Below, piece by piece: positions 1 through 59,233 of a stretch of 64,000 nucleotides of DNA. Source of the DNA: Gammaproteobacteria bacterium. Lineage in GTDB: Bacteria > Pseudomonadota > Gammaproteobacteria > Steroidobacterales > Rariloculaceae. A program made the position numbers and the translations under genes. Every line of letters starts with the position of its first letter. The first letter of the stretch is position 1. The notes beneath the pieces were generated by a model that saw only the letters and a program-made list of their open reading frames with translations, was not told the origin of the DNA and made no database searches. The stretch is taken from positions 21,192 to 85,191 of the forward strand of contig DASZSB010000168.1 in the NCBI GenBank assembly GCA_035548835.1, in the 5' to 3' direction.

Positions 1-382
1 CGAGTACCGCATCATGCCGACGGACGGCCGCAAGCACGACAAGCAGCAGGCCCAGCAGACCAAGTACATGGGCTACACGGTCGGTCACTGGGAAGGCGAC
101 ACGCTCGTGCTGGATTCGATCGCGTTCAACGACTTCACGTGGCTCGCGCGCGGGGGCTTCTTCCACTCCGACGAGATGCGCGTGGTCGAGCGCTTCACCC
201 GCAAGGGCAACGAGATCCTGTACGAGGTCACGGTCGAGGATCCGCAGGTGCTCGTGAAGCCCTGGGTAATGACGCCGCGGATCCTGCGCCAGGCCACGTT
301 CCCCGACGCGGGCCTGTTGCCCGAGCGCGGCAACTGCGAGACCTACGAGACCGAGGACGTCGTCACGCAGATCCGTCACTAG
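1..382 (+). CDS. 3' part of a gene for a secreted protein of an uncharacterised family (here 'family A', GxWxGD/N-TLVV domain); the 5' end is outside the window
   Basis: The frame of ORF 14..382 stays open back to the window edge (codons 2..13 = EYRI, no stop). 'YRIMPTDGRKH...GYTVGHWEGDTLVLDS...MRVVERF' aligns with 'TRVIPLDGRPH...GDARGHWEGNTLVVET...LKLIERF' of 28040..29077. Confidence 0.8.
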   Translation, partial: EYRIMPTDGRKHDKQQAQQTKYMGYTVGHWEGDTLVLDSIAFNDFTWLARGGFFHSDEMRVVERFTRKGNEILYEVTVEDPQVLVKPWVMTPRILRQATFPDAGLLPERGNCETYETEDVVTQIRH

Positions 383-401
383 CCGGGGCGTACCGACCAC
401 G

Positions 402-442
402 AAACGCTGGCGCAGGTCCGGAAGACCTGCGTCAGCGTTTTT
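402..442. terminator. Intrinsic terminator hairpin between convergent genes
   Basis: AAACGCTGGCGCAGGTC (402-418) / loop CGGAA / GACCTGCGTCAGCGTTT (424-440) gives a 16-17 bp stem with one G-T pair, followed by a T run (438-442). The 3' arm overlaps the stop codon of the minus-strand gene 432..980. Confidence 0.6.
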
Positions 443-980
443 GCATTCGCTGCAGGAACACCTTGATGTAGGCAGGCTCCGGTGCCTGGTAGCCGGCCAC
501 CATCAGGAACACCGGCTCGAAGCTGCCCGGGTGCCGGGCCAGGAACGCCTTGATCCGGGGCTCGAACGTATCCATGAGAGCGCGATGCTCGTCCAGGCGG
601 GTCCCGCCCTCGTGTGCCATGGCGAGTCGGCACGACCTCGACCGGCATTCGACCGTCATCGCCCCGATTTCGGGCAGGGACTCACGCACGAATCGGGTCA
701 GCGTGGCGGTCCACACCCTGGACCAGGCCGGATCGGGGGGCTCGCCGTCGAACAGCCGATCGACGCGCAGGCGGTCGTGGACCATCGTCGACAGCGACAT
801 GTTCGTGACTTCCTCGCGTTGCTCGCGCGTCAGCTCGCTCGCGCCGACGTAGCGCATGACCATGTGGCCGTCGGTGTCCATGGCGACCCAGTCGCGCTCG
901 TCCTGGGCGAGCGCGAGCGGTGCGCCAATTCCCGTCGCGAGGGTGAGCGAAATGGCCAGGGCCAGCACTGCGAGACTCAT
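432..980 (-). CDS. Hypothetical secreted protein
   Basis: 182-aa ORF with a signal-like N-terminus MSLAVLALAISLTLATGIGAPLALA/QD and GC3-rich codons. I recognise no domain. Confidence 0.6.
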   Translation of the reverse strand: MSLAVLALAISLTLATGIGAPLALAQDERDWVAMDTDGHMVMRYVGASELTREQREEVTNMSLSTMVHDRLRVDRLFDGEPPDPAWSRVWTATLTRFVRESLPEIGAMTVECRSRSCRLAMAHEGGTRLDEHRALMDTFEPRIKAFLARHPGSFEPVFLMVAGYQAPEPAYIKVFLQRMQKR

Positions 981-1277
981 CGGGGTGGGTTCGGTCCGGT
1001 CGTGGTTCCGGCCCGCGATTGTGCGGCGTCACGCGGCTTGGTGCGAGAGCCGAGCCGGCGAGGCCGGGCTCGTGGCGGCCGCGGCGCACTTCGAGCCGCT
1101 GCTTCGCCGCTGCGAAACTCTGGCGAGCGACCGCGGCATGGGCCCTCTCGGCGGAGCCCTGCATGGCGAAGACGTGAATGGGTGGGCACGGCAGAATCAC
1201 CTATACTCTTCGCGCGCAGTTCCGACTGTAACGAGGTGCGACGAACTGCAACGCATGGCGAAAAGGGGGGGCTCTGC

Positions 1278-1724
1278 ATGCGCCGATCACTTGTGATTAG
1301 TCTGGCTGCGCTGTTGTCGTTGTCCGGCGTTCAGGGCTTCGCCCAGCGCCCCGAAGGGTTCAAGGCGCGGCTCGAGTGGGTCCCGATCGGCGGAGCCGAG
1401 CGCAAGGACGTGGCCGGAGAGGGGTCGGTCGAGGCGAAGCTCGCCGGCACGACGCTCACGATTACCGGCGCATTCTCGGGCCTGCCGGCGAAGGTCACGG
1501 CGGCCAGGTTGCACGCAGGCGTCGCCAAGGGCGCGCGCGGCGCCGGCCTCGCGATCGCCGACCTCGGCGTCAGTGGCGCCGCGAGCGGGACCGTGTCGGG
1601 CGAGGTCCATCTGACGGCGGATCAGGTCGCAGCGCTGAAGGCCGGCCGCCTGTACGTGCAGATCTATTCCGAAAAGGGTGTGCTGCCCGATCACAGCACG
1701 CTGTGGGGCTGGCTGCTGCCCTGA
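1278..1724 (+). CDS. Secreted CHRD-domain-like protein
   Basis: ATG at 1278 is preceded by AAAAGGGGGGG (1261-1271). Signal peptide [22 protein letters not shown]. '[15 protein letters not shown]' and '[12 protein letters not shown]...GWL' resemble the CHRD pattern (AHIH.G..G ... YVNVHT...G.IRG). The 441..1724 extension in the ORF track is antisense to 432..980 and is rejected. Confidence 0.65.
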
Positions 1725-1767
1725 CAACTCCCAACGCAACCGATCAACCAACGCGAGGGCGCTGCGC

Positions 1768-3891
1768 TTGATTCAGAACAGTGTCGGCTGCCGGATCCTT
1801 GTCGTCGCCGCGGCCACCGTCCAGCTGGGGCTCGCGCCGTATTCGGCCAGTGCCTTTACGGCAGAGCAGGCGGCCGGCGGGCGCGCCACCTTCGAGCAGA
1901 ACTGCGCGCAGTGCCATGGGGTCACGCTTCGCCAGCTGCCGGGCGCCGTCCTCGCGGGACCTGAGTTCGCCGCCAAGTGGGGCGAGCGCAGCACGAGCGA
2001 GCTGCTCGCGCAGGTCGGCGCCACGATGCCGCCCGATCGGCCCGGTGCGCTGTCGCAGGGCGAGTACCTGGGTGTGATTGCGTACATCCTGCAGTCGAAT
2101 GGTGCGGCGGCGAACGCGCAGGCGCTGACGGCGGCCACGGCCGCGAGCATCGGCGCCGGGCTGAATCCGCAAGCCGCGCTCGCGGCGGCCGCACAGCCCG
2201 CGGCGGCCCCCGCGCGGCGGCAGGAGCCGACCGGCGTCGTGGTCCACGGCACCGTCAGAAACTTCGTGCCGGTCACGGATGCGATGCTGCGCAATCCGTC
2301 CGACAAGGACTGGCTCATGCTGCGCCACGACTACAGCGCGACGAGCTACAGCCCGCTCAGGCAGATCACGGCGGAGAACGCGAAGCTGTTGCAGCTCGCA
2401 TGGATCTGGCCCATGCACGAGGGCGGCACGAATCAGCCCGCGCCGCTCGTCTACAACGGCACGCTGTACCTCGCCAACACGGGCGGCATCATCCAGGCGC
2501 TCGATGCCCGCACCGGCAATCTGATCTGGGAGCACCACGTCGGTGCCGACATCGCCCCGCGCGGCATCGTGCTGTACGGCAACAAGCTGATCTTCCAGAG
2601 CGCCGAGGAGTGGGCCCTGCGTCCGCAGGAGGCGCGGCTGATCGCGCTCGATGCGGCGAACGGCGAAACGGTCTGGAACGTCAAGATGCCGGACGTGTAC
2701 GCCACGAACAGTGGCCCGCTCGTGGCCAACGGTCTGCTGATCCAGGGCATGGGGACCTGCACCGTCTACGAGAACAACAAGTGCTTCATCAGCGCGTACG
2801 ATCCGCAGACGGGCGAGCAGAAGTGGCGGTTCCGCACGGTCGCGCTGAGCGGTGAACCGGGCGGCGACAGCTGGGGCGATCTGCCGGATCTGTACCGCGC
2901 GGGCGCGGAATCGTGGATCACGGGCAGCTTCGACCCGGAGCTCGGCCTCACCTACTGGGGCACCACGCAGGCGAAGCCCTGGATGCCGGCCAGTCGCGGC
3001 ATGAAGGGCACGGACGTCGCTCTCTACTCGAGCTCCACGCTCGCGCTCGATGCCGCCACGGGCAAGCTCGCGTGGTACTACTCGCACGCGCCGGGCGAGG
3101 CATTCGATCTCGACGTGGTCTTCGAGCGCGTGCTGATCGACGGTCCCGGCCGCGACAAATGGGTGCTGTCCGTCGGCAAGGACGGCATCCTGTGGAAGCA
3201 CGACCGCAGGAGCGGTGCCTATCTCGATCACGTCGAGACCGTGTTTCAGAACGTGTGGGCCAGCTTCGATCGCGAGAAGGGCACGCCGCGCTACCGCGAC
3301 GACATCCTGGCGGCGAAGGTCGGCGAGTGGGTGGATTCCTGTCCCAGCACTGCCGGCGGCAAGAACTGGCACCCGATGAGCTTTCACCGCCCGACCCGCC
3401 AGGTCATCATTCCGCTGTCGCAGACCTGCATGTCGCTGCGTGCGCAGGCCATCGAGCAGAAGCCCGGTGGCGGCAGCGGCGGTGGCGCGGATCGGCGTTA
3501 CTACGCAATGCCGGGCACGAACGGCAACGTCGGCAAGCTCGGAGCGTTCGACGTCGATACGTTCAAGGAGACGTGGTCCCTGCAGCAGCGCGCGGCCTTC
3601 CTGACCGGCGTGCTGTCGACGGCGGGCAACGTCGCGTTCGTCGGCGATCTCGACCGCAGCTTCAAGGCCGTCGATGTCCGCAGCGGCAAGGTCGTGTGGG
3701 AGACGCGCCTGGCGACCTCGGTGCAGGGTTTTCCGATCACGTTCGAGGTCGATGGGCGGCAGTACGTTGCCGTCGGCACGGGCCTGGGCGGCGGCAGCCC
3801 GCGCGGCGTGCCGTCGCTGGTCGAGCCCGAGATCCAGCCGCCGACGCGCGGTCACGCGCTGTACGTGTTCGCGTTGCCGAAATCCGAGTGA
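1768..3891 (+). CDS. Periplasmic quinohaemoprotein-type dehydrogenase: N-terminal cytochrome c domain + PQQ beta-propeller (copy 1)
   Basis: CAQCH haem motif at 1903-1917. PQQ-dehydrogenase blocks: [124 protein letters not shown]. About 60% identical by eye to 45295..47343. The start is uncertain: TTG at 1768 gives a signal-like [28 protein letters not shown], whereas the ORF-track ATG at 1678 overlaps the upstream gene. Confidence 0.85.
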
Positions 3892-25724: not shown

Positions 25725-25757
25725 GACGGCGAGCCTCTGGCTCGCCGTCGCCTTTTC
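25725..25757 (+). terminator. Rho-independent terminator after the receptor gene
   Basis: GACGGCGAGCC (25725-25735) / loop TCT / GGCTCGCCGTC (25739-25749) is a perfect 11 bp stem, followed by GCCTTTTCGG. Confidence 0.75.
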
Positions 25758-25880
25758 GGGGGTGCGGCCCCGGGGCGGGGCGCACGGGATTTCCGGCGCG
25801 CGCCGGATTGGTCCGCCCGGCGTCGTTGGGCCATAATCGATTTCGGATTTCTTCCTGCGAAACAGAGCCCTGCCGCCAAG

Positions 25881-26957: not shown

Positions 26958-26992
26958 CGCGGGAGCGACGGGCTCCACAAGGGGGAATCGAC

Positions 26993-27994
26993 ATGCACGG
27001 CAAACACCGGATCGGCATCGCGCTCGCAATCATGGCCTTGGCGGCGACAGCCGGCGCCCAAGAGCCCGTGGGTCGAATCCAGTCGCTCTCGCATGCGATC
27101 CATGCGGTCAACGACCTCGATACGACGCTCGCGTTCTATCGCGACGTGTTCGGCATCGAGGGCAAGGCCGTCGACTTCCCGAACCCTGGCGTGCCGCTGC
27201 TGACGAATGCGCCCGGCGTCACATTGCGCCTGTCCATGGTCGCGCTGCCCGGCGGCACGCGCTTCGAGTTCACGCACTTCAAGGGGCTCGAGCGCCAGCC
27301 GGCCCAGGCGAAGTACACCGATCCCGGCGCCGCGAGCCTCGTCCTGTACGTGCGCGACATCGATGCAGTCGCGGCCGCCGCGAAGAAGGCGCACGCCGTC
27401 ATCGTGACCACGGGCGGCGCGCCGGTCGAGATCGCCACGCCACAGGGCAAGACGCGCTCGATCATCCTGCGCGACCCGGACGGGTTCTTCCTGCAGCTCG
27501 TGCAGGAGACGCCCGCGGCCGGTGCGCCGCAGGGCAGCATCCACCGCGTCACCGTGGCCTATACGATGGAAAGCGCCGACGCGACGAAACGCTTCTACAC
27601 CGGCATGCTCGGCGTCGGGCTCGAGGGCGGCGCGGCCTTCGTCAAGGACCCCGCGTTTGCGAAGCTCGTCGGCGCGCCCGACAACGTGGAGTTCCGCAGG
27701 CTGAGCGGCACGCTGCCGCCCGGAACCCGCGTCGATTTCACGGAGTTCCGCGGCGTGCCGCGCAGCAAGTTCCACCTGCGGGTCCGCGACCCCGGCGCGC
27801 CGGCCCTGGCCATCCAGGTGGAGAACCTCGTGGGCATGGTGGCGCAGATGAAAGGGGCGGGCGTGAACGTGATCTCGACGAACGGTCAGCTGGTCGACTT
27901 TGGCAACGGCGTCCACAACATCTTCGTGGAGGATCCGAACGGCATGAACCTCGAGCTGATCGAGCGGTCGCCGCCGCCAGGCGGCAGCAAGTAG
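26993..27994 (+). CDS. Secreted two-domain VOC (glyoxalase/bleomycin-resistance/dioxygenase) family protein (copy 1)
   Basis: ATG at 26993 follows GGGGGAA. Signal peptide. 'HAIHAVNDLDTTLAFYRDVFGIEG' and a second repeat 'VAYTMESADATKRFYTGMLGV', plus 'DPDGFFLQLVQ' and 'DPNGMNLELIE'. Paralog of 47369..48394. Confidence 0.8.
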   Translation: MHGKHRIGIALAIMALAATAGAQEPVGRIQSLSHAIHAVNDLDTTLAFYRDVFGIEGKAVDFPNPGVPLLTNAPGVTLRLSMVALPGGTRFEFTHFKGLERQPAQAKYTDPGAASLVLYVRDIDAVAAAAKKAHAVIVTTGGAPVEIATPQGKTRSIILRDPDGFFLQLVQETPAAGAPQGSIHRVTVAYTMESADATKRFYTGMLGVGLEGGAAFVKDPAFAKLVGAPDNVEFRRLSGTLPPGTRVDFTEFRGVPRSKFHLRVRDPGAPALAIQVENLVGMVAQMKGAGVNVISTNGQLVDFGNGVHNIFVEDPNGMNLELIERSPPPGGSK

Positions 27995-28039
27995 CATGGA
28001 TTTGCACAGAGACCACGAGCGGACGAGGGGCAGAGCAAC

Positions 28040-29077
28040 ATGAGACGGGTGTCGTGGGGAACTTGTGCGGCGGCCGCGGTCGTCGCGGCCGCTCTCGGCG
28101 CGCAGGCGCAGACGTCGGCGCCCATTCAGGCGAGCGACGTGCCGCAGCGCAAGAAGGTGGCGCCTCTGCCGCCGCGCGGCACCTACGTGCCGCCGAAGAC
28201 CTCGTGGGGCGACCCCGCGATCGCCGGCGCGTACAACAACAGCGACGAGAGCGGCATTCCGTTCGAGCGGCCGGCCGAGTACGCGGGTCGTACGCTCGAC
28301 AGCTTCACGCCGGAGGAGCTCGCGAAGATCACGAGGCAGCGCCAGGAGCAGACCATCGAGCGCAATCCGACGCTGTCCGAGTTTCCGGGCGCCACGAGCC
28401 CGATGCACTGGTTCGAGAACTACTTCGCGGCCAACAGCCGGGCGTGGCTCGTCTCCGATCCGCCGGACGGCAAGGTGCCCGAGCTGACGGACGAGGCGCG
28501 GCAGCGGGCGGCGGCACGCGAGGAGGCTCGCAAGGGACGCGGACCGGCGGATTCCTACACGGATCGCAGCCTGTACGACCGCTGCATCACGCGCGGCGTG
28601 CCGGGCTCGATGATGCCGGCCATCTACGGCAACTCGTATCAGATCATGCAGAGCCCCGACGCGGTGACCATCACGTACGAGATGATCCACGACACACGGG
28701 TGATCCCGCTCGACGGCCGGCCGCACGTCGCGCCCGCGATACGCCAGTACCTGGGTGACGCGCGCGGTCACTGGGAGGGCAACACGCTGGTCGTCGAGAC
28801 CACGAATTTCAACGACAGGGTGCCGTTCCGCGGCTCGAGCCAGGAGCTCAAGCTCATCGAGCGCTTCACGCCGCTCGGCCCGGACACGCTCGAATGGTCG
28901 GTAACCTTCGACGATCCGCACACCTGGGCGCGGCCGTGGACGTTCGCCATGAACCTCACGCACGACGAATCGCAGCCGCTGTTCGAGTACGCCTGCCACG
29001 AGGGCAACTACGGCCTGCGCAACATGTTGTCGGCTGCGCGCGCCGAGGAAGCGGCCGCGCAGAAGAAGGGCAAGTAG
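28040..29077 (+). CDS. Secreted protein of uncharacterised family A (full length, 345 aa)
   Basis: Signal peptide. 'SWGDP', 'DRSLYDRCITRGVPGSM', 'ITYEMIHDTRVIPLDGRPH', 'GHWEGNTLVVETTNFN', 'LIERF' and 'FEYACHEGNYGLRNML' are shared almost block-for-block with 51939..52937. Confidence 0.85.
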   Translation: MRRVSWGTCAAAAVVAAALGAQAQTSAPIQASDVPQRKKVAPLPPRGTYVPPKTSWGDPAIAGAYNNSDESGIPFERPAEYAGRTLDSFTPEELAKITRQRQEQTIERNPTLSEFPGATSPMHWFENYFAANSRAWLVSDPPDGKVPELTDEARQRAAAREEARKGRGPADSYTDRSLYDRCITRGVPGSMMPAIYGNSYQIMQSPDAVTITYEMIHDTRVIPLDGRPHVAPAIRQYLGDARGHWEGNTLVVETTNFNDRVPFRGSSQELKLIERFTPLGPDTLEWSVTFDDPHTWARPWTFAMNLTHDESQPLFEYACHEGNYGLRNMLSAARAEEAAAQKKGK

Positions 29078-37266: not shown

Positions 37267-37292
37267 GTGACCATGGCAGCATTAATGGTCAC
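37267..37292. promoter_or_regulatory. Inverted repeat (candidate operator) upstream of 37319..37765
   Basis: GTGACCAT-N10-ATGGTCAC has perfect 8-bp arms and an AT-rich centre (GGCAGCATTA). It lies 27 nt upstream of the ATG. Confidence 0.3.
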
Positions 37293-37318
37293 ACGATCCT
37301 GTGACGAGGTGGCGGTCG

Positions 37319-37801: not shown

Positions 37802-37888
37802 GGCTTTCATAGGTCCGAGAAAGAGCGTGTAAGTCGTTGATGGTAATTTGGTAGTAGGGTCCCGCAAGGACCGGTTGGAGGAGTGACC

Positions 37889-40519: not shown

Positions 40520-40523
40520 GGTA

Positions 40524-41774: not shown

Positions 41775-41894
41775 GAAGGCTCCCCCTGAGTTCGCGGTCC
41801 GGGGAGGCGTGCGCGAGGCAGCGGTGCCCGGACCGCGATCCGAGTATGCCGCGATTCGCGGCAAGCCGCACGCACGTGGGCGCGTCGCGTCAGC

Positions 41895-43361
41895 TCACTT
41901 GAACGTGAAGATGTCCTCGTCCGCGGGCTTCTGCATTCCCTGCTCGTGGTACTCCTGCCAGATCTGCGCCCACGGGCGGCCGAACATGTCGGGCACCTTG
42001 TACTGGATCACGGTTCCCGGTGCGACCGGCGTTGCGCGCCCGTTCAGCGGGTAGATCGTCGGCACGCACTCGATGAACTGATACGGCTCGCCGGCTTCGA
42101 CCTCGCTCGACTTCACGAGATTGCGGACCATGCGGATCGGCTGAACCAGCGCTTCCGGATCATAGAAGATGCCTTCGTGATTCAGGCCAACGACCTTGCC
42201 CGCGGCGTCGCGAGTGGGCGTATAGATCTCGATCGTCTGCAGCTTGCTCGAGAACTCGAAGTTGCCGTGCACCTTCCAGCCCTGGATGTTCGATGTCCAC
42301 GTGATCAGCACGTCCTTGTCCCAGAAGCCGACGGTCTCGCCGTACCACTTCGGCACTTCGGCGCCGAGGTGCGGCACGCTGCCGTTCACGTCGAAAGTGC
42401 GGCCTATGTTCACATGCGTGATGAAGTTGTCCGCGTCACCGGCGAGTATCTGCACGAGCTTCGGTGTCACGATGATCGAGTGCGCCTGATTCGTCACGCC
42501 GTGGTAATGCCAGCGGCGCATGAAGCCCTCGGGCCAGCAGTATTGGGCCGGCCACTGCGGCGCGTTCGTGTGGCCGTCGTGATACATCTCCTCGACCATG
42601 CGCGTCTGGTACTCGGGCGTCAGCAGCGACAGCACGGTCGGGATCTGCGTCCAGAAGATCTCCGCGTACCAGTTCTGGCCGCGTGGCCACAGATAGCGGC
42701 CGCTGATGTCGCCCGGCACCGTCGCGTAGGTGTGCTCGGTGGGACCGCCGCGGCGGCGCGTCTCCTCGAGCAGGGCCGCGTAGTGTTCGGCCGCGGTCTT
42801 GAACGGGTAGGGGCTCACGAGCGCCTCGCGCGGCAGGCCGCGATCGCAGTAACCCCACGCGGCCGAGCGCGGGGGATCGTCGCCGACCAGCGGCTTCACG
42901 TTGCCGCGTGCGGCCCACTGGGCCTCGAGAGCACCGTTGCTGTTGCAGCGGAAGTAGCGCGGGTCGCTCCAGAGCGCCTTGTCCTTGTAGAAGTCCGTCG
43001 ACGTGAAGACGTCGACCGGCAGCGGCTTGACGCCCTTCGGCACGGCGCCGTTCCACGCGGAGCCGTGGCGGGTCTCGACGGGCTTGCCGTCGGGGCCCGG
43101 CTTCGTCGCCCGGAACGGCCCCACCATCCAGTACCGCTCGGGCAGCCCGGGGATCTCCGCGGGCGGATAGGCTTCGATGTCGGGATTCGTCGGGTTCGGG
43201 ATGGCAACCGCGAGCGGCGCCGCGCGCCCGACACTCTTGAACCCGATGTCGGCGACCGCCTGCGCGCTGGCGGCCGGATCGAGAAGTGCCGCGACCGCGA
43301 GTGCTGCAACCAACTGGCAGAGCGCGGTCACGTTGACGAGAGGCGCGACGATCTTCGGCAT
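41895..43361 (-). CDS. Secreted protein, divergent long member of family A (488 aa)
   Basis: ATG at 43361 follows AAGGAG. Signal peptide. 'CWPEGFMRRW', 'IIVTPKLVQILAGDADNFITHVNIGR', 'PHLGAEVPKWYGETVGFWDKDVLITWTSN' align with the C..RG.P / ..I.Q.. / R.I.LDGR.H / G.W.GDTLVV.T blocks of family A. Confidence 0.75.
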   Translation of the reverse strand: MPKIVAPLVNVTALCQLVAALAVAALLDPAASAQAVADIGFKSVGRAAPLAVAIPNPTNPDIEAYPPAEIPGLPERYWMVGPFRATKPGPDGKPVETRHGSAWNGAVPKGVKPLPVDVFTSTDFYKDKALWSDPRYFRCNSNGALEAQWAARGNVKPLVGDDPPRSAAWGYCDRGLPREALVSPYPFKTAAEHYAALLEETRRRGGPTEHTYATVPGDISGRYLWPRGQNWYAEIFWTQIPTVLSLLTPEYQTRMVEEMYHDGHTNAPQWPAQYCWPEGFMRRWHYHGVTNQAHSIIVTPKLVQILAGDADNFITHVNIGRTFDVNGSVPHLGAEVPKWYGETVGFWDKDVLITWTSNIQGWKVHGNFEFSSKLQTIEIYTPTRDAAGKVVGLNHEGIFYDPEALVQPIRMVRNLVKSSEVEAGEPYQFIECVPTIYPLNGRATPVAPGTVIQYKVPDMFGRPWAQIWQEYHEQGMQKPADEDIFTFK

Positions 43362-43541
43362 GGTCGGCTCCTTGGCGGTCGCGCCACTCTGCCACAAGCC
43401 CGCGCGCGGGCACAGGCGCGATGCCTTGCGCGGCGGCGCCCGCAGCGCCGTCCGCCGTGGCGTCACACCACAGCCTCTAGTACGATCCCTGCGCTGCGGG
43501 TCGGTGGCCCGCACACCCAAAGAACAAGAAGGGGGGAAGCC

Positions 43542-44027
43542 ATGCGCGCGTTGTTGCTCGTCGGTGCAGTCGCCGTTGTGTCGTCGTCCGCCATTGCCCA
43601 GCAGCCCGCCGCCGGCTCGGGCAAGACCATGGTTTCCGCTGCCGACGTGGCCGCGCTGATCGCCAAAGCGAAAGCGGAGCGCAAGGACCAGCCGATCATT
43701 GCGCAGTCGATGTTGCAGATCGCGCCGTACAACGTGAGCCTCGAGTACCGTGCCTCCGTCGGCAACGCGGCCGTGCACGAGACCGAAGCGGAGTTGTTCT
43801 ACGTCGTCGACGGCTCGGCCACGCTGGTCACGGGCGGCAAGCTGACGGCCGAGAGGCGAACGAACGCCGAGAACCTCACGGGCACGGGCATCGAAGGCGG
43901 CGAGTCGCGTCACGTGGCCAAGGGGGATTTCATCCTGGTGCCCGACCACACGCCGCACTGGTTCAGCAAGATCGACGGCACGGTCGTACTGATGTCGTTG
44001 CACCTGCCATTGCATGCGGCGCACTAG
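43542..44027 (+). CDS. Secreted cupin-domain protein
   Basis: ATG at 43542 follows AAGGGGGGAA. Signal peptide. 'VHETEAELFYVVDGSATLVTGG' and 'GDFILVPDHTPHWF' are the two cupin motifs. Confidence 0.75.
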   Translation: MRALLLVGAVAVVSSSAIAQQPAAGSGKTMVSAADVAALIAKAKAERKDQPIIAQSMLQIAPYNVSLEYRASVGNAAVHETEAELFYVVDGSATLVTGGKLTAERRTNAENLTGTGIEGGESRHVAKGDFILVPDHTPHWFSKIDGTVVLMSLHLPLHAAH

Positions 44028-44072
44028 CGTGTCGGGACGGCCGGCCGTCCGGCAGACCCGGAGGGGACGTCG

Positions 44073-45218
44073 ATGACGCCCTTGAAGATCGTGCGCGGGC
44101 TCGCGATTGCCGGCACGCTGACGCTGGTTGCGGGCTCGCCGGCGCTCGCGCACCACGGCTTCGGGCTGTTCCAGATGGAGAAGCTCGCCGACTGGTCCGG
44201 CACGCTCACGAAGTTCGAGCTCGTGAATCCGCACTCGTATCTGTACTTCGACACCGTCGGCGCCGACGGTAAACCGCTGTCGATGCGCTGCGAGATGCGT
44301 GCGGCCACGTTGATCAAGCGCTCGGGCTGGAAGACGGAGGAGTTCGTTCCGGGCCGGCACGTCGACATCCACGGCCATCCGCATCGCGACGATCCCCACT
44401 CGTGCTACCTCGAGAGCGTCACGATCGGCGGCAAGACGTCGATCGATCGCAACGATCAGTTCACGCGCGCACCGGTCGACACTTCGAAGCGGCCGCTGCG
44501 ACTGGCGTCGGGCGAGCCGAACATCTCGGGCGACTGGGCCGTGGAGCAGGCCGTGCTGACGATTCCGCCGAGCGGCGGGCGCGGGGATCTCGTGCCGCGC
44601 AGCGTCCGCGAAGCGTACGCCGCGGGCAAGATCACGCTGGCCGAGATCCGTGCGCGCAATCCGGCGCCATCGAAGCCGCAATACACGCCGGCGGGTCAGG
44701 CGGCCGCGACGGCGTTCCGCATGTGGTCGCCGGAGGACAATCCGCGACTCTCCTGCAAGCCGACGAGCATCATCTTCGACTGGACGTTCGACTGGCCGGT
44801 CAATCGCATCACGCAGACCACCGTGAACGGCGAGAAGGTCATCGACATCGATTACGGCCTGTACAGCAACACGCGGCGCATCCACTTGGGTCTGGACAAG
44901 CATCCGTCGGGACTCGTGCCGAGCAACGCGGGCCATTCGATCGGCCGCTGGGACGGCGACACGCTGGTCGTCGATACCGTGGGCTTCACGGCGGGCGTGC
45001 TCGTGCCGCCGACGAAGAGCAGCGACAAGCTGCACGTCGTCGAGCGCTTCACGTTCGATCCGAAGACGTTCTCGCTGAAGCGCGAGTACACGGTCGAGGA
45101 CCCCGTGTACCTGGCGGCGCCGTACACGGGGCAGGACACGGTGCTGCTGTCGGACACGCCGTTCGAGAAGCAGCGCTGCTCGGAGCTGACGTACGAGTTC
45201 ACGCAGCCCGGCAACTGA
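44073..45218 (+). CDS. Secreted fusion protein: DUF6152-like N-terminal domain (family B) + family A C-terminal domain (copy 1)
   Basis: Signal peptide ending ALA, then HHGFG (His codons 44151-44156). '[11 protein letters not shown]...MRCEMRAAT...GHPHRDDP' matches 51492..51935. The C-terminal '[10 protein letters not shown]...NRITQT...RRIHLG..HP...[19 protein letters not shown]...LHVVERF' matches family A. About 60% identical by eye to 53090..54208. Confidence 0.8.
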
Positions 45219-45294
45219 CGCTTCAGACTGCGAGCTTTGGGGGTGGGCGCCGGCACGTTCCGGCGCGAGTTCGGGGGATTCGGGGCTGTCGATC

Positions 45295-47343
45295 ATGAGC
45301 CGGTTCAGGCATTTCCTGGTGCTCGCCGTGGCGAGCGTCGTCGCGTTGCAGTGGGCAGCTTCTGCACACGCCTACACGGCCGAGCAGGCTACGGCGGGGC
45401 GCGCCGCGTTCCAGGACGCCTGCGCGATGTGCCACGGCGCCAACCTGCGCAACCTGCCGAACGCCATTCTGGCGGCACCGGAGTTCGGCGCGCGCTGGAC
45501 GGGTCGCACGACCGCCGACCTGCTCCAGCAACTGAAGGCCACGATGCCGCCCGAGGCTCCCGGCAGCCTGCCGGAGGCCAGCTACCTTGGCATCATCTCG
45601 TTCCTGCTGCAGACCAATGGCTTTGCAGCGAACACGACGCCGCTGACCGCGGCCACGTCGGCGGTCATCGGCAGCGACGCGCTCGCGCCGGCGCGCCCGG
45701 CCGCCGAGCCTGTCGGCGTGACGGTGGCCGGCACCGTTCGCGACTTCGTGCCGCTGACCGAGCAGGCGCTGCGGAATCCCTCCGCCGGCGACTGGCCCAT
45801 GCTGCGCCGCGACTATGGCGCCTCGAGCTACAGCCCGCTGAAGGACGTCACGGCCGCGAACGCGCACCGCCTTACGCTCGCGTGGATCTGGCCGATGCGC
45901 GACGGCGGCACGAACGAGCCGTCGCCGCTCGCGTACCGCGGCACGGTCTACCTCAACAACACGCAGGGCATCGTGCAGGCCATCGACGGTCGCGATGGCT
46001 CGCTGATCTGGGAGCATCACGTCAAGGACACGGTCGCGAGCCGCGGCATGGCGCTCTACGACGACAAGCTGTTCCTGCAGGCCAATGGGCACCTGATCGC
46101 GCTGAACGCGCGCAATGGCGAGACGGTGTGGGACGTGCAGATGCCCGACGGCCACGCGAGCAGCAGCGGCCCGCTCGTCGCAAGCGGGCTCGTGATCCAG
46201 GGCATGGGCGCCTGCCAGACATACGAGCCGCTGAAGTGCTTCATCAGCGCGTACGACGCGAAGACGGGCGAGCAGAAGTGGCGCTTCCAGACGATCGCGA
46301 CCAGCGATCAGCCGGGCGGCAACACGTGGGGAAACCTGCCCGACCTCTATCGCGCCGGCGGGGAGACCTGGATCACCGGCAGCTACGACCCCGATCTCGG
46401 CCTCACGTACTGGGGCACGGCCCAGGCGAAGCCCTGGATGCCCGCGAGCCGCGGCATGGGCAGCCTGGATGCCGGGCTCTACACGAGCTCCACGGTCGCG
46501 CTCGACGTGCGCACCGGCAAGCTGGCATGGCACTACCAGCACGCGCCGGGCGAGGCGCTGGACCTCGACGTGGTGTTCGAGCGCGTGCTGGCCGACGGCG
46601 GCGGCCGCAAGTGGGTGCTGACCGTGGGCAAGGACGGCGTGCTGTGGAAGCTCGACCGGCGCACGGGCGAGTATCTCGATCACGCGGAAACTCTGTTCCA
46701 GAACGTCTGGGCGAGCTTCGATCGCGAGACGGGCCAGCCGCGTTATCGCGACGACATCCTGGCGCACAAGGTGAGCGACTGGATAGATGGCTGCCCGAGT
46801 TCGGAAGGCGGCCACAACTGGCAGGCCACGAGCTTCCACAAGCCGTCGCGCACGCTGCTGATTCCGCTGTCGCAGAGCTGCATCGCGATCCGCGCGCAGG
46901 CCATCGAGCAGAAGCCCGGCGGCGGCAACGCGGGTGGTGCCGACCGGCGCTTCTATGCGATGCCGGGCACGAATGGCAACATCGGCAAGCTCGCGGCGTT
47001 CGACATCGACACCATGAAGGAGAAGTGGTCGCTGCAGCAGCGGGCCGCGATCCTGACGGCCGCGTTGTCGACGGCCGGCGGCCTCGTGTTCATCGGCGAT
47101 CTCGATCGCAGCTTCAAGGCCATCGACGTGCGCGACGGCAAGGTGGTCTGGCAGACGCGGCTCGCGACCTCGGTACAGGGCTTTCCGATCTCGTTCGAGG
47201 CGGGCGGCAAGCAGTACATCGCGGTGACGACGGGTTTGGGCGGCGGCAGTCCGCGGCTCGTGCCGAATCTGCTGTCGCCGGAAGTTCAGCCGCCGGGGCG
47301 CGGCCAGGCCCTGTACGTGTTTGCGTTGCCGGACGAGCGTTGA
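45295..47343 (+). CDS. Periplasmic quinohaemoprotein-type dehydrogenase: N-terminal cytochrome c domain + PQQ beta-propeller (copy 2)
   Basis: Signal peptide [31 protein letters not shown] at 45421-45435. It carries the same PQQ-propeller blocks as copy 1, and '[10 protein letters not shown]' at 46561-46569 encodes D-L-D. Confidence 0.9.
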
Positions 47344-47368
47344 TTCCGATTCTCTTCGAGGGACCCTC

Positions 47369-48394
47369 ATGAAGCGCCTAGCATCGATTCTGCTGTTCGG
47401 ATTCCTGACGACCGCTGCGCACGCGCAGCAAGCGCCCGCACCGACGGGCCTCGTCGTCGGTAGCGGCAACTTCTTCAGCCCGATCGTGCGCGATCTCGAC
47501 AAGGCCGTGGCGTTCTACCGCGACGGGCTCGGGCTCGAGACGCAGGGCGAGCCAGGCAACGCCGACAAGAACGAGAACCTGCGCAGGATGTTCGGCCTTC
47601 CCGAGGCGAAGATCCGCTGGATGATCGCGCGCCCCGCCGGCATGCGCAGCGGGGTCGAGATCGTCGAGATCTCCGGTGTGGGCGGCAAGCCGCTCGTCCG
47701 GCGGCCGCAGGATTCCGGCGCGTACACGTTGATCGCGTTCGTGCGCGACATGGACGGGACGCTCGCGCGCCTCAAGGCGCAGGGTACGCGGATCGTGTCC
47801 GCGAGCGGCGCGCCCGTGTCGCTGCCGCTCGGTGCGGGACAGAACGGCCGCATGATCACGGTGGCCGACCCCGACGGCCACTTCGTCGAGATCGTGCAGC
47901 CGGACAAAGTGCCGGAGACGGCGGGGGCCTCGAACGTCTACGACGTGCGCGTGCGGCTCGCGGTGCAGGACGTCGAGAAGGCGGCGCACCTGTATCACGA
48001 CGAGCTCGGCCTCGAGCTCGTGAACCAGTCGACGTTCACGGACAACCCGACGGTCGCGGGCGCGCTCGGCGTCCCCGGCGCCCAGTTCCGCTTCGCGATG
48101 CTGAAGGTACCGACCACGGGCCTCGTGTTCGAGGTCATCGACTACAAGGGCATCGACCGCAAGGTCGTGCGCGGTGACCTCAAGGATCCCGGCTCGACGC
48201 GCATCCAGATGCAGGTGCGCGACATCGACGCGGCCGTGGCCGCGCTCACGAAGGCGGGCGGCGCTTTCGTGTCGACCGGTGGCAAGCCGCTCGAGCTGCC
48301 CGCGGGCAACAACGTGCTGAAGGTCGGCATCGTGCGCGAGCCGGACAACCTGTTCGTCGTGCTCATCCAGTCGCCGCCGCCGGCCGCGAAGTGA
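47369..48394 (+). CDS. Secreted two-domain VOC family protein (copy 2)
   Basis: ATG at 47369, 25 nt after the PQQ gene. Signal peptide MKRLASILLFGFLTTAAHA. 'VRDLDKAVAFYRDGLGLE', 'DPDGHFVEIVQ', second domain 'VQDVEKAAHLYHDELGLE', 'EPDNLFVVLIQ'. Confidence 0.8.
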   Translation: MKRLASILLFGFLTTAAHAQQAPAPTGLVVGSGNFFSPIVRDLDKAVAFYRDGLGLETQGEPGNADKNENLRRMFGLPEAKIRWMIARPAGMRSGVEIVEISGVGGKPLVRRPQDSGAYTLIAFVRDMDGTLARLKAQGTRIVSASGAPVSLPLGAGQNGRMITVADPDGHFVEIVQPDKVPETAGASNVYDVRVRLAVQDVEKAAHLYHDELGLELVNQSTFTDNPTVAGALGVPGAQFRFAMLKVPTTGLVFEVIDYKGIDRKVVRGDLKDPGSTRIQMQVRDIDAAVAALTKAGGAFVSTGGKPLELPAGNNVLKVGIVREPDNLFVVLIQSPPPAAK

Positions 48395-48488
48395 CACTCA
48401 GGTAACACGCGTGGCGCGTTTGACCCGGCCTCACGGCTTCGCTAGGGTCGGGCGCCACGTTCCTCTCGAACCCACAAGGAGAATCGGA

Positions 48489-49139
48489 ATGAATCGTATC
48501 CAGGCATTCGGCGTTTTGAGCATCCTCGCGCTCGGCGCCGGCGCGGCGCTCGCGCAGGCGCCCGCGGGCAATTTCAGCTTCTTCGTCTCGAGCAAGAATC
48601 CCGGCAAAGGTGGCGATCTCGGCGGTCTCGCGGGCGCCGACGCGCATTGCCAGTCGCTCGCGGCCGCCGTGGGCGCGGGCAGCAAGACGTGGCACGCGTA
48701 CCTGAGCACCGACAGGGTCAACGCCAAGGACCGCATCGGCAAGGGCCCCTGGTACAACGTGAAGGGCGTGGAGATCGCGAAGGACGTGAAGGACCTGCTC
48801 GGTGCGACGAACAACAAGATCAACGGCGAGACCGCGTTGACGGAGCAGGGCAAATTACCCAATTACCTCGCCGGCAATCCGCCCGCACCGAAGGCGCAGC
48901 CGCTGCAGCACGACATCATGACCGGCACCAACGACGACGGCACGGCCACGGCGAATACGTGCAGGAACTGGACGAGCGGCGCCGACGACGTGAAGACCAC
49001 GCTCGGCCATGCCGATCGGCTCGGCCGCAACCCCGGCGTGAACTCGTGGACCAACGCCCACGACTCGCAGGGCTGCTCGCTCGAGAAGCTGGCGCCCACC
49101 GGCAGCGCGGGCCTGATCTACTGCTTTGCCGTCAACTGA
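48489..49139 (+). CDS. Secreted endostatin / C-type-lectin-fold-like protein (DUF1554-like)
   Basis: ATG at 48489 follows AAGGAGA. Signal peptide. 'GGDLGGLAGADAHCQSLAAAVGAGSKTWHAYLS' resembles the endostatin N-terminal block (GG.RGIRGADFQCFQQARAVGL.GTFRAFLS). C-terminal 'CRNWTSG' and 'LIYCFA'. Confidence 0.6.
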   Translation: MNRIQAFGVLSILALGAGAALAQAPAGNFSFFVSSKNPGKGGDLGGLAGADAHCQSLAAAVGAGSKTWHAYLSTDRVNAKDRIGKGPWYNVKGVEIAKDVKDLLGATNNKINGETALTEQGKLPNYLAGNPPAPKAQPLQHDIMTGTNDDGTATANTCRNWTSGADDVKTTLGHADRLGRNPGVNSWTNAHDSQGCSLEKLAPTGSAGLIYCFAVN

Positions 49140-49162
49140 ACCGCACGCATCGGTGTGCCGAG

Positions 49163-49192
49163 AGCCCCGCCGCGTGCGGGGCTTTCTTTTTC
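49163..49192 (+). terminator. Rho-independent terminator closing the plus-strand cluster
   Basis: AGCCCCGC (49163-70) / loop CGCGT / GCGGGGCT (49176-83), followed by TTCTTTTTCT. Confidence 0.75.
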
Positions 49193-59226: not shown

Positions 59227-59233
59227 AGGCGCG

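Follow-up and report, generated by a model that had tools for sequence, protein, structure and literature searches.

Poly(vinyl alcohol) (PVA) dehydrogenase combines PQQ with a c-type haem, and its operon also encodes the enzyme that cleaves its product (PMC11644497, PMC6472588). A PQQ pyranose dehydrogenase donates electrons to an LPMO (PMC6472588). Electrons can leave PQQ enzymes via c-type cytochromes, quinones or azurin, and PQQ synthesis is often missing from Acidobacteria that have PQQ enzymes, the PQQ-binding protein PqqT being a precedent for capture of the cofactor (PMC12124388). As for the metal, a D-x-D motif is taken to mean a lanthanide, and D-x-A/T/S calcium (PMC11996626; bioRxiv 10.64898/2026.07.10.737718). 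Here I describe a locus in which a quinohaemoprotein gene with the D-x-D motif lies among genes of largely uncharacterised exported proteins. The whole stretch of DNA analysed (64 kb, hereafter the window) is from a soil bacterium.

Layout of the locus

As shown in Table 1, five plus-strand genes form an operon-like run around the haem c/PQQ dehydrogenase gene, as the initial annotation had proposed from spacing, domains and export signals. All ORF coordinates were reproduced exactly, and so were the gaps of 45, 76, 25 and 94 nt within the run. The intrinsic terminator said to close it was also found; it is a strong one, with 8 G-C among the 11 pairs of its hairpin (49160-49186), a loop of 5 and the tail TTTTTCT. 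A scan of the intergenic region between the divergent F488 and cupin genes gave no sigma-70-type consensus site. The F488 gene opens a minus-strand run, F488-DUF1501-DUF1800, and the order is identical in a relative (L010).

Table 1. Features of the focal locus and related genes elsewhere in the window
Feature	Position	Strand	Remark
A fragment	2-382		A-family similarity
Exported CHRD protein	1236-1724	+	Directly upstream of second haem c/PQQ gene
Second haem c (CAQCH)/PQQ dehydrogenase	about 1777-3891	+	65% identical to focal enzyme
Second VOC	26993-27994	+	30% identical to focal VOC
Stand-alone A	28040-29077	+	45-nt gap after second VOC
DUF1800	38756-40519	-	Pfam; 4 nt downstream of DUF1501
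DUF1501	40524-41864	-	Pfam; Tat-type SRRDLLRLG motif; 30 nt downstream of F488 gene
F488, exported, 488 aa	41895-43361	-	Divergent A superfamily member
Divergent intergenic region, F488/cupin	43362-43541		180 nt; sequence read directly
Exported cupin, 161 aa	43542-44027	+	Cupin_2
Exported DUF6152-A fusion (B-A), 381 aa	44073-45218	+	DUF6152 and unassigned C-terminal part A
Exported quinohaemoprotein, 682 aa	45295-47343	+	Pfam PQQ and cytochrome c
Exported two-domain VOC (glyoxalase-fold) protein, 341 aa	47369-48394	+	Glyoxalase, two stretches
Exported DUF1554 protein, 216 aa	48489-49139	+	DUF1554
Intrinsic-terminator-like hairpin and T-run	49160-49196	+	Between convergent DUF1554 and methyltransferase genes
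GSDH C-terminal remnant	50904-51476	-	Beside split A/DUF6152 pair
Stand-alone DUF6152	51492-51935	-	3-nt gap to stand-alone A
Stand-alone A	51939-52937	-	Precedes DUF6152 on same strand
Second B-A fusion	about 53090-54208	+	53% identical to focal B-A

Seven consecutive secreted proteins had been counted, but the segment 41895-49139 contains six genes for exported proteins; seven is reached only if the Tat-signal DUF1501 gene is added. All six products have a basic n-region, an AxA-type site and a hydrophobic core (mean Kyte-Doolittle value of 2.2-3.1 over 10 residues, compared with 0.9 for the methyltransferase and 0.35 for DUF1800 as cytoplasmic neighbours). Thus, every product has a Sec-type signal peptide as claimed, by this rule of thumb rather than by SignalP.

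The quinohaemoprotein

The assignment of the central gene to a haem c/PQQ dehydrogenase was borne out. In Pfam, the protein scores 198 bits for PQQ and 33 bits for Cytochrome_CBB3. A cytochrome c domain at the N-terminus, with CAMCH at residues 43-47 (45421-45435), precedes an 8-bladed PQQ propeller, in which D423-L-D425 (46561-46569) is in register with the catalytic Asp region. The best PDB matches were 4cvb (8.6e-89, aligned over residues 146-681), 9m2c, 7wmd and 4mh1, and the closest relatives of known structure are sorbose, alcohol and deoxynivalenol (DON) dehydrogenases of broad range. Since its relatives already carry public names such as "alcohol dehydrogenase (cytochrome c)" or "PQQ-dependent dehydrogenase", the word "undescribed" used for the system does not hold for the core enzyme. 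Judged from its sequence, the enzyme is of an ordinary, routinely annotated kind, and its predicted N-terminal haem c domain and D-x-D motif are the less common traits. Among 49 homologues matched by a motif regex, all have D-x-D and 48 have the N-terminal CxxCH. The motif indicates that the enzyme probably uses a lanthanide. A vicinal Cys-Cys is absent; the Cys pairs are instead Cys307/Cys315 and Cys500/Cys529. The loading of the cofactor is not certain, because the NCBIfam methanol/ethanol family score is below the cut-off (332 versus 480) and the protein matches the "acido-empty-quinoprotein" model (281 versus a cut-off of 650). No genes for PQQ synthesis, PQQ uptake or lanthanide uptake were found within the window.

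The accessory proteins

The cupin exceeds the Cupin_2 cut-off (37.1 versus 27.2 bits). The VOC protein matches Glyoxalase over two stretches (58.7 bits), its only PDB match being a weak one to a glyoxalase (6bu2, 4.8e-5). The last protein of the run had been called endostatin-like. However, the "endostatin-like LenF" NCBIfam model scored 17.5 against a cut-off of 400, while DUF1554 matches (31.4 bits; cut-off 27.5); there was no PDB sequence match.

In the B-A protein, residues 1-26 are the signal peptide, and the mature chain starts with His27-His28 (44151-44156). An OB-fold-like DUF6152 domain follows (residues about 29-130), and then an A domain predicted to be a lipocalin/FABP-like barrel (residues about 136-381). 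The Pfam match to DUF6152 covers residues 20-106 (60.9 bits). In the AF2 model (pLDDT 84.7, but below 50 at the N-terminus), Foldseek related the N-terminal part to OB-fold proteins and the C-terminal part to FABP/SAHS/CRABP, none of them with E < 1e-3. Invariant residues include H27, H28, N52-P53-H54, C73, C111, C228 and C369. The AxA|HH junction was found in 137 of 152 DUF6152 domains, with the invariant N-P-H about 25 residues after the mature His-His. This nearly constant N-terminus suggests a metal site. The A domain has a lipocalin-type G-x-W, a conserved Arg and nearly invariant Arg220 and Arg275; one member of the family bears an additional Lipocalin_5 domain, and there are fusions to VOC or terpene-cyclase-like domains.

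The initial annotation regarded A and B (DUF6152) as two unknown families, and they are indeed large and unstudied. The A superfamily comprises more than 21,000 clusters and has neither a Pfam or NCBIfam model nor a PDB sequence match, and DUF6152 was not mentioned in the literature searched. The F488 family likewise gave no Pfam, NCBIfam or PDB sequence match, and its more than 4,300 homologues are all named "hypothetical". F488 had been described as A-like. The likeness is not visible by BLAST, but an hhalign comparison with a diverse A alignment (probability 98.7%, E = 4e-16; residues 248-439 matching the A barrel) identifies F488 as a divergent member of the superfamily. The AF2 model of F488 is poor (pLDDT 63), and no significant fold match was found with it.

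Gene order and neighbours in other genomes

Is the gene order kept in relatives, the check that had been suggested initially? The exact order is, but only inside one clade of five closely related species-level MAGs, and it is lost at 50-76% identity, where the neighbours differ. Identity of the PQQ protein is 85-89% in four of these MAGs (L008-L011), whereas the remaining one, which contains L059 and L181, has about 54%. The five-MAG synteny is weak evidence, since it runs past the cluster through methyltransferase, MBL/GSDH, DUF6152, A and second B-A genes. Among 80 loci homologous to the enzyme, the gene directly upstream encodes CHRD in 40 and B-A in 5, and VOC, cupin and DUF1554 are not regular neighbours. 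Thus, what usually precedes a gene of this enzyme family is CHRD rather than the parts proposed earlier. Conversely, about 60 of 80 B-A fusions have no recognisable dehydrogenase within 7 kb; close B-A orthologues can stand alone, and those at 69-82% identity occupy unrelated contexts.

On the other hand, links to PQQ enzymes were found beyond this clade. The cupin shares 48% identity (E = 1e-44) with residues 421-573 of a GSDH-cupin fusion protein of 580 aa (L002), and the A part of a VOC-VOC-A fusion (P0305) is 42% identical to the A of the window (E = 1e-67). B-A directly adjoins GSDH or AA12-like genes in L002 (with a Pfam TrAA12 match), L006/L007 and L096, a cyt c-GSDH fusion in L088, and 8-bladed haem c/PQQ genes in L100 and L114. 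Several of these adjacent GSDHs have no cytochrome gene nearby. The order A, DUF6152, full-length GSDH is found in relatives (L168/L171), and a DUF1554 gene lies immediately upstream of an F488 orthologue in L006/L007. In unbiased ORF clustering of the 80 B-A loci, PQQ dehydrogenase was the sole unrelated family present in more than 10 loci (15/80). In summary, cupin, VOC, A and DUF6152 are linked to PQQ-type dehydrogenases or to one another by fusion or adjacency outside this genome, and both 8-bladed and 6-bladed PQQ enzymes adjoin DUF6152-A fusions in several lineages.

Paralogues in the window

The recurrences of the parts noticed at 1..3891 and 26993..29077 are real, and the split A/DUF6152 pair and the second B-A are further copies that had been missed. 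However, every paralogue sits in a different context: the second PQQ gene follows CHRD; the second VOC and its A end a run that opens with a TonB-dependent receptor (22278-25694) followed by a 2OG-Fe(II) oxygenase (25713-26957); and the split A and DUF6152 precede a GSDH remnant. Thus, co-duplication of the parts as a functional set is not supported. Since the families are highly multiplied, with six A-superfamily genes in the window, some proximity of A and DUF6152 is expected by chance.

A possible periplasmic oxidation module

I consider that 43542-49139 is most likely one transcription unit encoding a periplasmic oxidation module around the quinohaemoprotein, with a probability of roughly 0.6. 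What the analysis shows directly is how the genes are arranged, which domains and motifs they encode, their export signals, and the fusions and adjacencies; that the run is co-transcribed, which metal and class of substrate the enzyme uses, and what each accessory protein does are inferred. By homology, the propeller would bind PQQ and, in view of D-x-D, a lanthanide ion; the hydroxyl of an alcohol, sugar or polyol would be oxidised in the periplasm; and electrons would pass from PQQH2 through the enzyme's own haem c to the respiratory chain. The other four products of the run and F488 would be exported accessory proteins. The cupin and VOC proteins are likely to process either the carbonyl that results or the substrate ahead of its oxidation. 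DUF6152-A, a single protein here but two elsewhere, is probably a binder of two modules without catalytic activity, in which the OB-fold-like module would offer a putative metal site made of the free N-terminal His-His and N-P-H, and the lipocalin-like barrel would hold a small ligand. It may assist the dehydrogenase by carrying a cofactor or metal for it, or by exchanging electrons with it. A role of DUF6152 as a metallochaperone for the dehydrogenase's own metal is unlikely, since His-rich sites are ill-suited to lanthanide or calcium.

Alternatively, there may be no system, but a lineage-specific juxtaposition of independently acting exported proteins, whose apparent order results from the close kinship of the compared genomes and from the multiplied A, DUF6152, VOC and PQQ families. 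The order restricted to the closest clade, the flanking synteny, the differing neighbours of more distant relatives, the unrelated contexts of B-A orthologues and of the window paralogues, and the abundance of A genes are all consistent with this. However, copy number cannot account for the cupin-GSDH, VOC-A and DUF6152-A fusions. Moreover, B-A adjoins two structurally different PQQ propeller families on the same strand in Gammaproteobacteria and Acidobacteriota, its top unrelated neighbour cluster is PQQ dehydrogenase, and the run is tightly spaced with a single terminator. I regard mere juxtaposition as doubtful. The remaining alternatives concern function. It is rather improbable that DUF6152-A carries copper in a site like a histidine brace and takes electrons from the PQQ/haem enzyme. 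In that case it would be either the physiological acceptor, the part played by azurin with type II quinohaemoprotein alcohol dehydrogenases, or an activator of O2 or H2O2 on a second substrate. The latter arrangement would be a periplasmic equivalent, in bacteria, of the AA12 PQQ-dehydrogenase/LPMO couple of fungi. A His conserved at position 1 is a hallmark of LPMOs, CopC, PmoB and YcnI. The invariant His first after the predicted signal-peptidase site, the adjacency of B-A to AA12-like GSDH genes and to two kinds of haem c-fused PQQ enzymes, the GSDHs lacking a nearby cytochrome gene, and the precedent of the pyranose dehydrogenase favour such a role. In contrast to LPMO, CopC and X325, which are immunoglobulin-like sandwiches, DUF6152 is predicted to be OB-like. 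Copper-handling genes were not found among the recurrent neighbours, most B-A genes lack a dehydrogenase neighbour, and the metal site is read from sequence, the B-A N-terminus being modelled without confidence. An N-terminal His also serves nickel in NiSOD, so the metal of the putative site need not be copper.

An equally tentative idea is that the A barrels and DUF6152 are periplasmic carriers capturing PQQ or another small cofactor for apo-dehydrogenases, as functional analogues of PqqT in PQQ-scavenging bacteria. The association with PQQ dependence as such, across 8- and 6-bladed enzymes with different likely substrates, would fit, as would the "acido-empty-quinoprotein" match, the frequent lack of PQQ synthesis in Acidobacteria with PQQ enzymes, the PqqT precedent and the barrel prediction of A with its G-x-W, conserved Arg and Lipocalin_5 relative; Arg220 and Arg275 could bind carboxylates. 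However, sequence or fold similarity to PqqT-type binding proteins is absent, dozens of paralogues per genome are hard to square with a single cofactor, and the invariant His-His is left unexplained. The occurrence of A in the TonB-receptor/2OG-oxygenase run and in fusions with VOC or terpene-cyclase-like domains suggests diverse ligands. Finally, the cluster might degrade a 1,3-diol or polyol polymer as in PVA catabolism, the quinohaemoprotein turning secondary alcohols into beta-diketones or hydroxyketones that the cupin or VOC metalloenzyme cleaves. PVA dehydrogenase shares the PQQ and c-type haem and the operon with a cleaving enzyme; its haem domain is reportedly N-terminal, as in the focal protein, and cupin dioxygenases cleaving beta-diketones exist (Dke1). 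Nevertheless, this is very improbable: a serine-hydrolase (oxidised-PVA hydrolase) gene is absent from the cluster, the solved structures closest to the enzyme are those of sorbose, alcohol and DON dehydrogenases, and cupin or VOC genes do not regularly accompany members of its family.

Under the preferred reading, an oxidation module around the quinohaemoprotein, the accessory families would constitute a loose, shuffled toolkit that accompanies PQQ beta-propeller dehydrogenases in Gammaproteobacteria and Acidobacteriota of soil and sediment. The cluster thus pairs a known kind of enzyme with uncharacterised partner families.

The focal dehydrogenase

The haem c/PQQ enzyme of the plus-strand run matches the Pfam model PF01011 (PQQ) at 198 bits against a cut-off of 26.7, and carries the haem c motif CAMCH (residues 43-47) within a PF13442 cytochrome domain (residues 31-104, 33.4 bits against 27). 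Its 8-bladed propeller aligns over the full length with solved PQQ dehydrogenases. The top PDB match is 4cvb, a Pseudogluconobacter alcohol/sorbose dehydrogenase (E = 8.6e-89), other top matches are 9m2c, 7wmd and 4mh1 (sorbose dehydrogenase), and the type II quinohaemoprotein alcohol dehydrogenases (ADHs) and methanol dehydrogenases scored lower than these. In the NCBIfam search, TIGR03075 (methanol/ethanol family) gave 332 bits, below its cut-off of 480, and the 'acido-empty-quinoprotein' model 281 against 650. Close relatives are publicly named 'alcohol dehydrogenase (cytochrome c)' or 'PQQ-dependent dehydrogenase'. Thus, the enzyme is of a recognised kind, and the word 'undescribed' in the initial annotation does not fit the core enzyme.

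In the catalytic Asp region, W412 to D423 are in register with the 4cvb region WKHQTLPRDNWD, and the pattern W-x-x-Q-x-x-P-...-D is kept. The enzyme has D423-L-D425 where 4cvb has D-S-E. D-x-D was found in all 49 of the 49 homologues that could be aligned by a motif regex, and 48 of these 49 have a CxxCH upstream of the propeller, a layout that they share with the focal enzyme. In recent surveys, D-x-D is taken as a lanthanide signature and D-x-A/T/S as a calcium signature, and a clade with D-x-D throughout is placed beside the 4CVB-type sorbose dehydrogenases (PMC11996626; bioRxiv 10.64898/2026.07.10.737718). To judge from the motif, the focal enzyme is probably lanthanide-dependent. It shares the D-x-D with XoxF, ExaF/PedH and the predicted lanthanide-type sorbose/glucose dehydrogenases, but differs from these systems in that no lanthanide uptake or lanmodulin-like genes lie in the window. 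No PQQ synthesis or PqqU-like genes were identified within the 64 kb either.

How does the enzyme compare with known quinoproteins? With the periplasmic 4CVB/4MH1/7WMD (DepA) group it shares the location and the propeller, aligned end to end at E = 8.6e-89 to 7e-78. It also lacks, as does the sorbose dehydrogenase group, the vicinal Cys-Cys of methanol dehydrogenases and type I/II ADHs: there is no CC dipeptide in the sequence, and Cys307 and Cys315 are spaced as, and align with, the equivalent 4cvb pair. Unlike that group, it has an additional N-terminal cytochrome c domain. The type II ADHs (ADH IIB/IIG; 1KV9, 1KB0, 1YIQ) likewise combine a PQQ propeller and one haem c in a single, soluble, periplasmic polypeptide with intramolecular electron transfer from PQQ to haem, which is predicted for the focal enzyme. 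However, their haem domain is C-terminal and the similarity is weaker (E = 1e-51 to 1e-58). In poly(vinyl alcohol) dehydrogenase (PVADH; PvaA, EC 1.1.2.6), the haem domain is N-terminal, as in the focal enzyme. PVADH has PQQ, haem c and an operon partner (PMC6472588; PMC11644497); compared by description rather than by sequence, both systems encode a PQQ enzyme that carries a c-type haem, next to product-processing genes of the same run, this role being putative for the focal run. The difference is the oxidised-PVA hydrolase of pvaA-pvaB: no alpha/beta-hydrolase domain was found with Pfam in 41895-49139.

Layout of the gene run

Features of the window (coordinates are window positions)
Feature	Coordinates	Strand	Remark
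A fragment	2-382		window edge
ORF	432-980	-	coding-type composition, no Pfam match
CHRD gene	1236-1724	+	exported; directly 5' of second haem c/PQQ gene
Second haem c/PQQ gene	about 1777-3891	+	65% identical to focal enzyme
ORF	7709-8722	-	coding-type composition, no Pfam match
S-adenosylhomocysteine-hydrolase-like gene	20700-21953	-
TonB-receptor run	22278-29077	+	1,138-aa TonB-dependent receptor, 2OG-Fe(II) oxygenase-like protein, exported two-domain VOC, stand-alone A
Second VOC	26993-27994	+	A follows after 45 nt
Stand-alone A	28040-29077	+	last gene of TonB-receptor run
ORF	37286-37765	+	coding-type composition, no Pfam match
ORF	37847-38755	+	coding-type composition, no Pfam match; DUF8021 in public record annotation
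DUF1800 + DUF1501	38756-41864	-	'Planctomycete-type' pair
488-aa exported protein (F488)	41895-43361	-	divergent from focal run
Cupin	43542-44027	+	focal run
DUF6152-A fusion	44073-45218	+	focal run; 381 aa
Haem c/PQQ dehydrogenase	45295-47343	+	focal run
VOC	47369-48394	+	focal run
DUF1554	48489-49139	+	focal run, last gene
Terminator-like hairpin	49160-49186		11 pairs (8 G-C) + T-run
GSDH C-terminal part	50904-51476	-	190 aa; covers only 153-332 of the 332 positions in the GSDH profile
DUF6152 of split pair	51492-51935	-	3 nt from A
A of split pair	51939-52937	-
Second DUF6152-A fusion	about 53090-54208	+	53% identical to the focal fusion
PSD/PSCyt + DUF1552	58988-63034	+	'Planctomycete-type' pair; DUF1592/1588/1587/1595/1585, cytochrome c motif

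It was confirmed that all six ORFs of 41895-49139 are present as first described, with gaps of 45, 76, 25 and 94 nt in the plus-strand run and a terminator-like hairpin between the DUF1554 gene and a convergent methyltransferase gene. By a simple test for a hydrophobic segment and AxA, six of six N-termini are Sec-signal-like, and the cytoplasmic proteins adjoining the run fail the same test. The initial annotation had counted seven consecutive secreted proteins. The stretch holds six genes, and a seventh exported product is reached only by counting a DUF1501 protein (Tat-type motif) on the minus strand beyond F488. Since the DUF1501 gene follows F488 after 30 nt and a DUF1800 gene follows after another 4 nt, F488 heads its own three-gene run. 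The G+C content is 65-71% across the window, and the cluster has no compositional break.

The DUF1800/DUF1501 pair is the second 'Planctomycete-type' pair in the window beside PSD/PSCyt with DUF1552. Among the ORFs with coding-type composition and no Pfam match, signal-peptide-like N-termini were seen by eye in at least two (432-980 and 7709-8722). For the S-adenosylhomocysteine-hydrolase-like gene, the best matches among species-representative genomes come mostly from Firmicutes (50-57% identity), and only two proteobacterial matches are closer (71-85%); by these sequence identities, the gene is of an atypical or horizontally acquired family.

Conservation of the gene order

The comparison covered 80 loci whose enzyme homologues share 50-89% identity with the focal one. 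They come from Acidobacteriota (Vicinamibacterales and Bryobacterales) and from MAGs of Gammaproteobacteria, Candidatus Rariloculus among them, and all their six-frame ORFs were scanned with the families of the window. The full order, namely F488 on the minus strand, then cupin, DUF6152-A fusion, PQQ enzyme, VOC and DUF1554, then the methyltransferase on the minus strand, is confined to the four loci nearest to the window (85-89% identical) and a fifth genome (L181) reached via its VOC protein. In all five, synteny runs on for at least 5 kb beyond the cluster, which indicates that the conservation of the order reflects relatedness. VOC, cupin and DUF1554 genes are not regular neighbours of the enzyme family in the 80 loci. 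A gene for an exported CHRD protein lies directly upstream of the enzyme in 40 of the 80 loci, compared with 5 of 80 for the DUF6152-A fusion. This CHRD-quinohaemoprotein pairing spans Gammaproteobacteria and Acidobacteriota (loci L025-L087) and no part of the focal cluster is conserved nearly as well; the literature search found no paper with both 'CHRD' and 'PQQ-dependent'.

It had also been proposed that the parts were co-duplicated within the window as a functional set. The recurrences themselves were all found: the second VOC with its A gene at a 45-nt gap, the CHRD gene with the second haem c/PQQ gene, and the A fragment. Every paralogue has a different context, and thus the window paralogues are not copies of one set. 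The TonB-receptor run puts a member of the A family in an outer-membrane uptake context. Downstream of the focal run, the GSDH fragment begins 16 nt after the DUF6152 stop codon of the split pair, and a full-length GSDH gene stands at the same place in two close relatives (L168, L171); from its sequence, the fragment looks like a truncated GSDH remnant.

Cupin, VOC and DUF1554 proteins

The cupin matches Cupin_2 (PF07883) at 37.1 bits against 27.2. By eye, its first motif (A-V-H-E-T-E) has only one His where two are usual, and metal binding is uncertain. In two stretches, the VOC protein matches PF00903 as paired beta-alpha-beta-beta-beta modules (58.7 bits against 20.6). For the last product, called endostatin-like at first, the DUF1554 model is reached marginally (31.4 bits against 27.5), but the LenF model (NF047483) is not (17.5 against 400). 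Neither the cupin nor the DUF1554 protein has a match in the PDB.

The A superfamily and F488

A profile built from the four A copies of the window retrieved 21,211 cluster representatives (50% identity clusters) among 1.84 billion at E <= 1e-3; with the threshold set to E <= 1e-10, there were 10,507. More than 5,500 homologues were found for the DUF6152-A fusion and more than 4,300 for F488, the latter all labelled 'hypothetical' and without a Pfam domain. The A profile is likewise without a Pfam match; among 64 diverse A sequences, no lipocalin model matched at E <= 1, and the 64-sequence profile had no match among PDB sequences (best E = 0.23). F488 had been labelled 'A-like'. BLAST gave no match between F488 and A, and hhalign with shallow alignments gave a probability of 51%; against a diverse 200-sequence A alignment, F488 aligned to the A barrel region with a probability of 98.7% (E = 4e-16). 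The label is therefore correct. The AlphaFold2 model of F488 has a pLDDT of 63, and its Foldseek matches are not meaningful.

The C-terminal half of A is predicted to be an antiparallel barrel resembling the calycins FABP, CRABP and SAHS (Foldseek probability 0.9-0.99, target TM about 0.4-0.5, E 0.06-0.1). With the lipocalin/FABP barrels, A shares a G-x-W-x-G motif, within G-x-W-x-G-D-T-L-V-V, and a conserved, near-invariant Arg. It differs from them in an N-terminal extension of 100-200 residues, which has a P-D-L-x-G-x-W motif of its own and a pair of conserved Cys. In the representative library of A members, P0336 and P0364 have other arrangements: in one, a Lipocalin_5 domain comes after A, and in the other, A comes after a squalene-hopene-cyclase-like repeat region.

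DUF6152 and its predicted N-terminal histidines

PF19649 (DUF6152) covers residues 20-106 of the fusion (60.9 bits against 27) and matches the stand-alone copy of the split pair at 116.8 bits; the literature search found no paper with 'DUF6152'. The AlphaFold2 model of the fusion has a pLDDT of 84.7 overall and below 50 at the N-terminus. Foldseek with this model gave nothing with E below 1e-3, and the DUF6152 part groups with OB-folds (SSB, LysRS N-domain, Stn1/Ten1, OBody) at a probability of about 1.0 and a target TM of 0.5-0.6. A weak match of the stand-alone domain to the NanoLuc/LgBiT tag in the PDB (E >= 0.0035) was treated as chance.

Among the 152 DUF6152 domains whose N-terminus is covered, 137 have a predicted cleavage junction [AVST]-x-[AGS] followed by His-His after a hydrophobic leader, 94 of these being AxA|HH. 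An N-P-H motif about 25 residues after His-His and two Cys are invariant. The most plausible account of a His conserved exactly where the mature protein is predicted to start is that its free amino group and imidazole serve in a metal site, for which N-P-H would be a candidate second ligand. An invariant His as predicted mature residue 1 is also the feature of N-terminal-His copper proteins (LPMO AA9/AA10, CopC, YcnI/DUF1775, PmoB). In contrast to these, DUF6152 is modelled as OB-fold-like, not Ig-like or cupredoxin-like, carries a His-His doublet and has no CopD-type partner apart from two small DUF6644-like membrane proteins in Marinomonas. In the cultured strain Marinomonas rhizomae CECT 7377 (L156, 6932-9143), two paralogous small genes follow the fusion at 14 and 4 nt; by eye, their products have about four hydrophobic, membrane-spanning-like segments, one matches DUF6644, and L147 is a further case. 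The arrangement recalls a CopC/CopD-like binder with a membrane partner, but this idea was rejected, since the window has no DUF6644-like gene and such genes were seen in only 4-5 of about 190 loci. Identity with the small 'lanthanide cargo protein' was rejected from the description of that protein, which has no conserved domain and an Asp/Glu-rich site (bioRxiv 10.64898/2026.07.10.737718).

In loci L001-L167, split pairs are mostly in the order A then DUF6152 (31, against 11 in reverse), while fusions are nearly always DUF6152 then A (110 against 2). The two orders are opposite, and the fused form therefore does not come from plain read-through of a split pair in its usual order.

Association with PQQ enzymes and overall reading

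Are the accessory families linked to PQQ enzymes elsewhere? The window cupin matches the C-terminal domain of a GSDH+cupin protein of 580 aa at 48% identity (E = 1e-44), and one A member (P0305) is a VOC-VOC-A protein whose A part is 42% identical to a window A. In other genomes, the DUF6152-A fusion precedes a haem c/PQQ gene (L100 and L114), a GSDH/AA12-like gene (L002) or a GSDH with an N-terminal CxxCH (L088), follows a GSDH gene (L096), or is divergent from one (L006/L007, where DUF1554 followed by F488 and more A/DUF6152 pairs also occur). The order A, DUF6152, GSDH is found in L168/L171, and DUF6152 followed by F488 in L004/L005. Unbiased clustering of all ORFs in 80 loci of the fusion gave PQQ dehydrogenase as the largest unrelated neighbour cluster (15 of 80, a raw count), ahead of NHL/SGL propellers (9), PSD/PSCyt (7) and DUF1552 (6). 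The PSD and DUF1552 'Planctomycete-type' pair of the window thus recurs near fusions of other genomes (7 and 6 of the 80 loci).

The accessory families are tied to PQQ propeller enzymes by fusions and scattered adjacencies. PQQ enzymes of two unrelated propeller families are involved, which argues that the accessory proteins have to do with a trait shared by such enzymes (the cofactor, electron flow or reactive carbonyl products) and not with one substrate. A null reading, in which the genes are co-located through descent and high copy number, carries about a quarter of the probability. About three quarters of the fusion genes have no PQQ/GSDH-type dehydrogenase neighbour, some close orthologues stand alone, and the order in the five genomes that keep it goes with relatedness; the null reading is to be set against the GSDH+cupin and VOC-VOC-A fusions and the spread over both propeller families.

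On balance, the cluster most likely encodes a periplasmic module for oxidation by a quinohaemoprotein, a type already known, and the way in which accessory proteins are arranged around it is lineage-specific. The initial observation is confirmed, and its interpretation as a whole is partly supported. The leading ideas for the accessory role are that these proteins would serve as a metal-centred redox partner or as a cofactor or ligand carrier, or that the cupin and VOC proteins would process the product. A joint reading takes DUF6152 and A as a new periplasmic accessory class for PQQ beta-propeller dehydrogenases, in which a histidine-brace-like metal centre on an OB-fold would take electrons from the quinoprotein or quinohaemoprotein and a lipocalin-like barrel would present a second substrate or cofactor; it is an unlikely one, to which I give roughly one chance in ten. 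If true, bacteria would have an equivalent of the partnership between PQQ dehydrogenase and LPMO in fungi, and the N-terminal-His metal site would sit on a fold that is new for such sites.

PQQ dehydrogenases, many of them predicted lanthanide users, are increasingly seen as major periplasmic carbon oxidisers in soil, weathering rock and the ocean. Few of their partners for cofactor and metal supply, electron acceptance and product handling have been described, notably in uncultured Acidobacteriota and Gammaproteobacteria. The candidate partners here are the GSDH-fused cupin, the A-fused exported VOC, the CHRD protein upstream of half of the N-terminal-haem enzymes, and the DUF6152/A pair. If the link is false, the locus is just a further quinohaemoprotein gene, of the annotated sort, with hypothetical genes around it; if it is true, missing components would be added to periplasmic quinoprotein metabolism, and the His-His at the predicted mature N-terminus of DUF6152 offers a simple biochemical handle. 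The wider value lies in the attention drawn to the CHRD-quinohaemoprotein pair, to DUF6152, and to A and its 488-aa branch, very large families entirely missed by annotation. For A, whose clusters at 50% identity number over 21,000, there is as yet neither a Pfam model nor a solved structure nor a paper.
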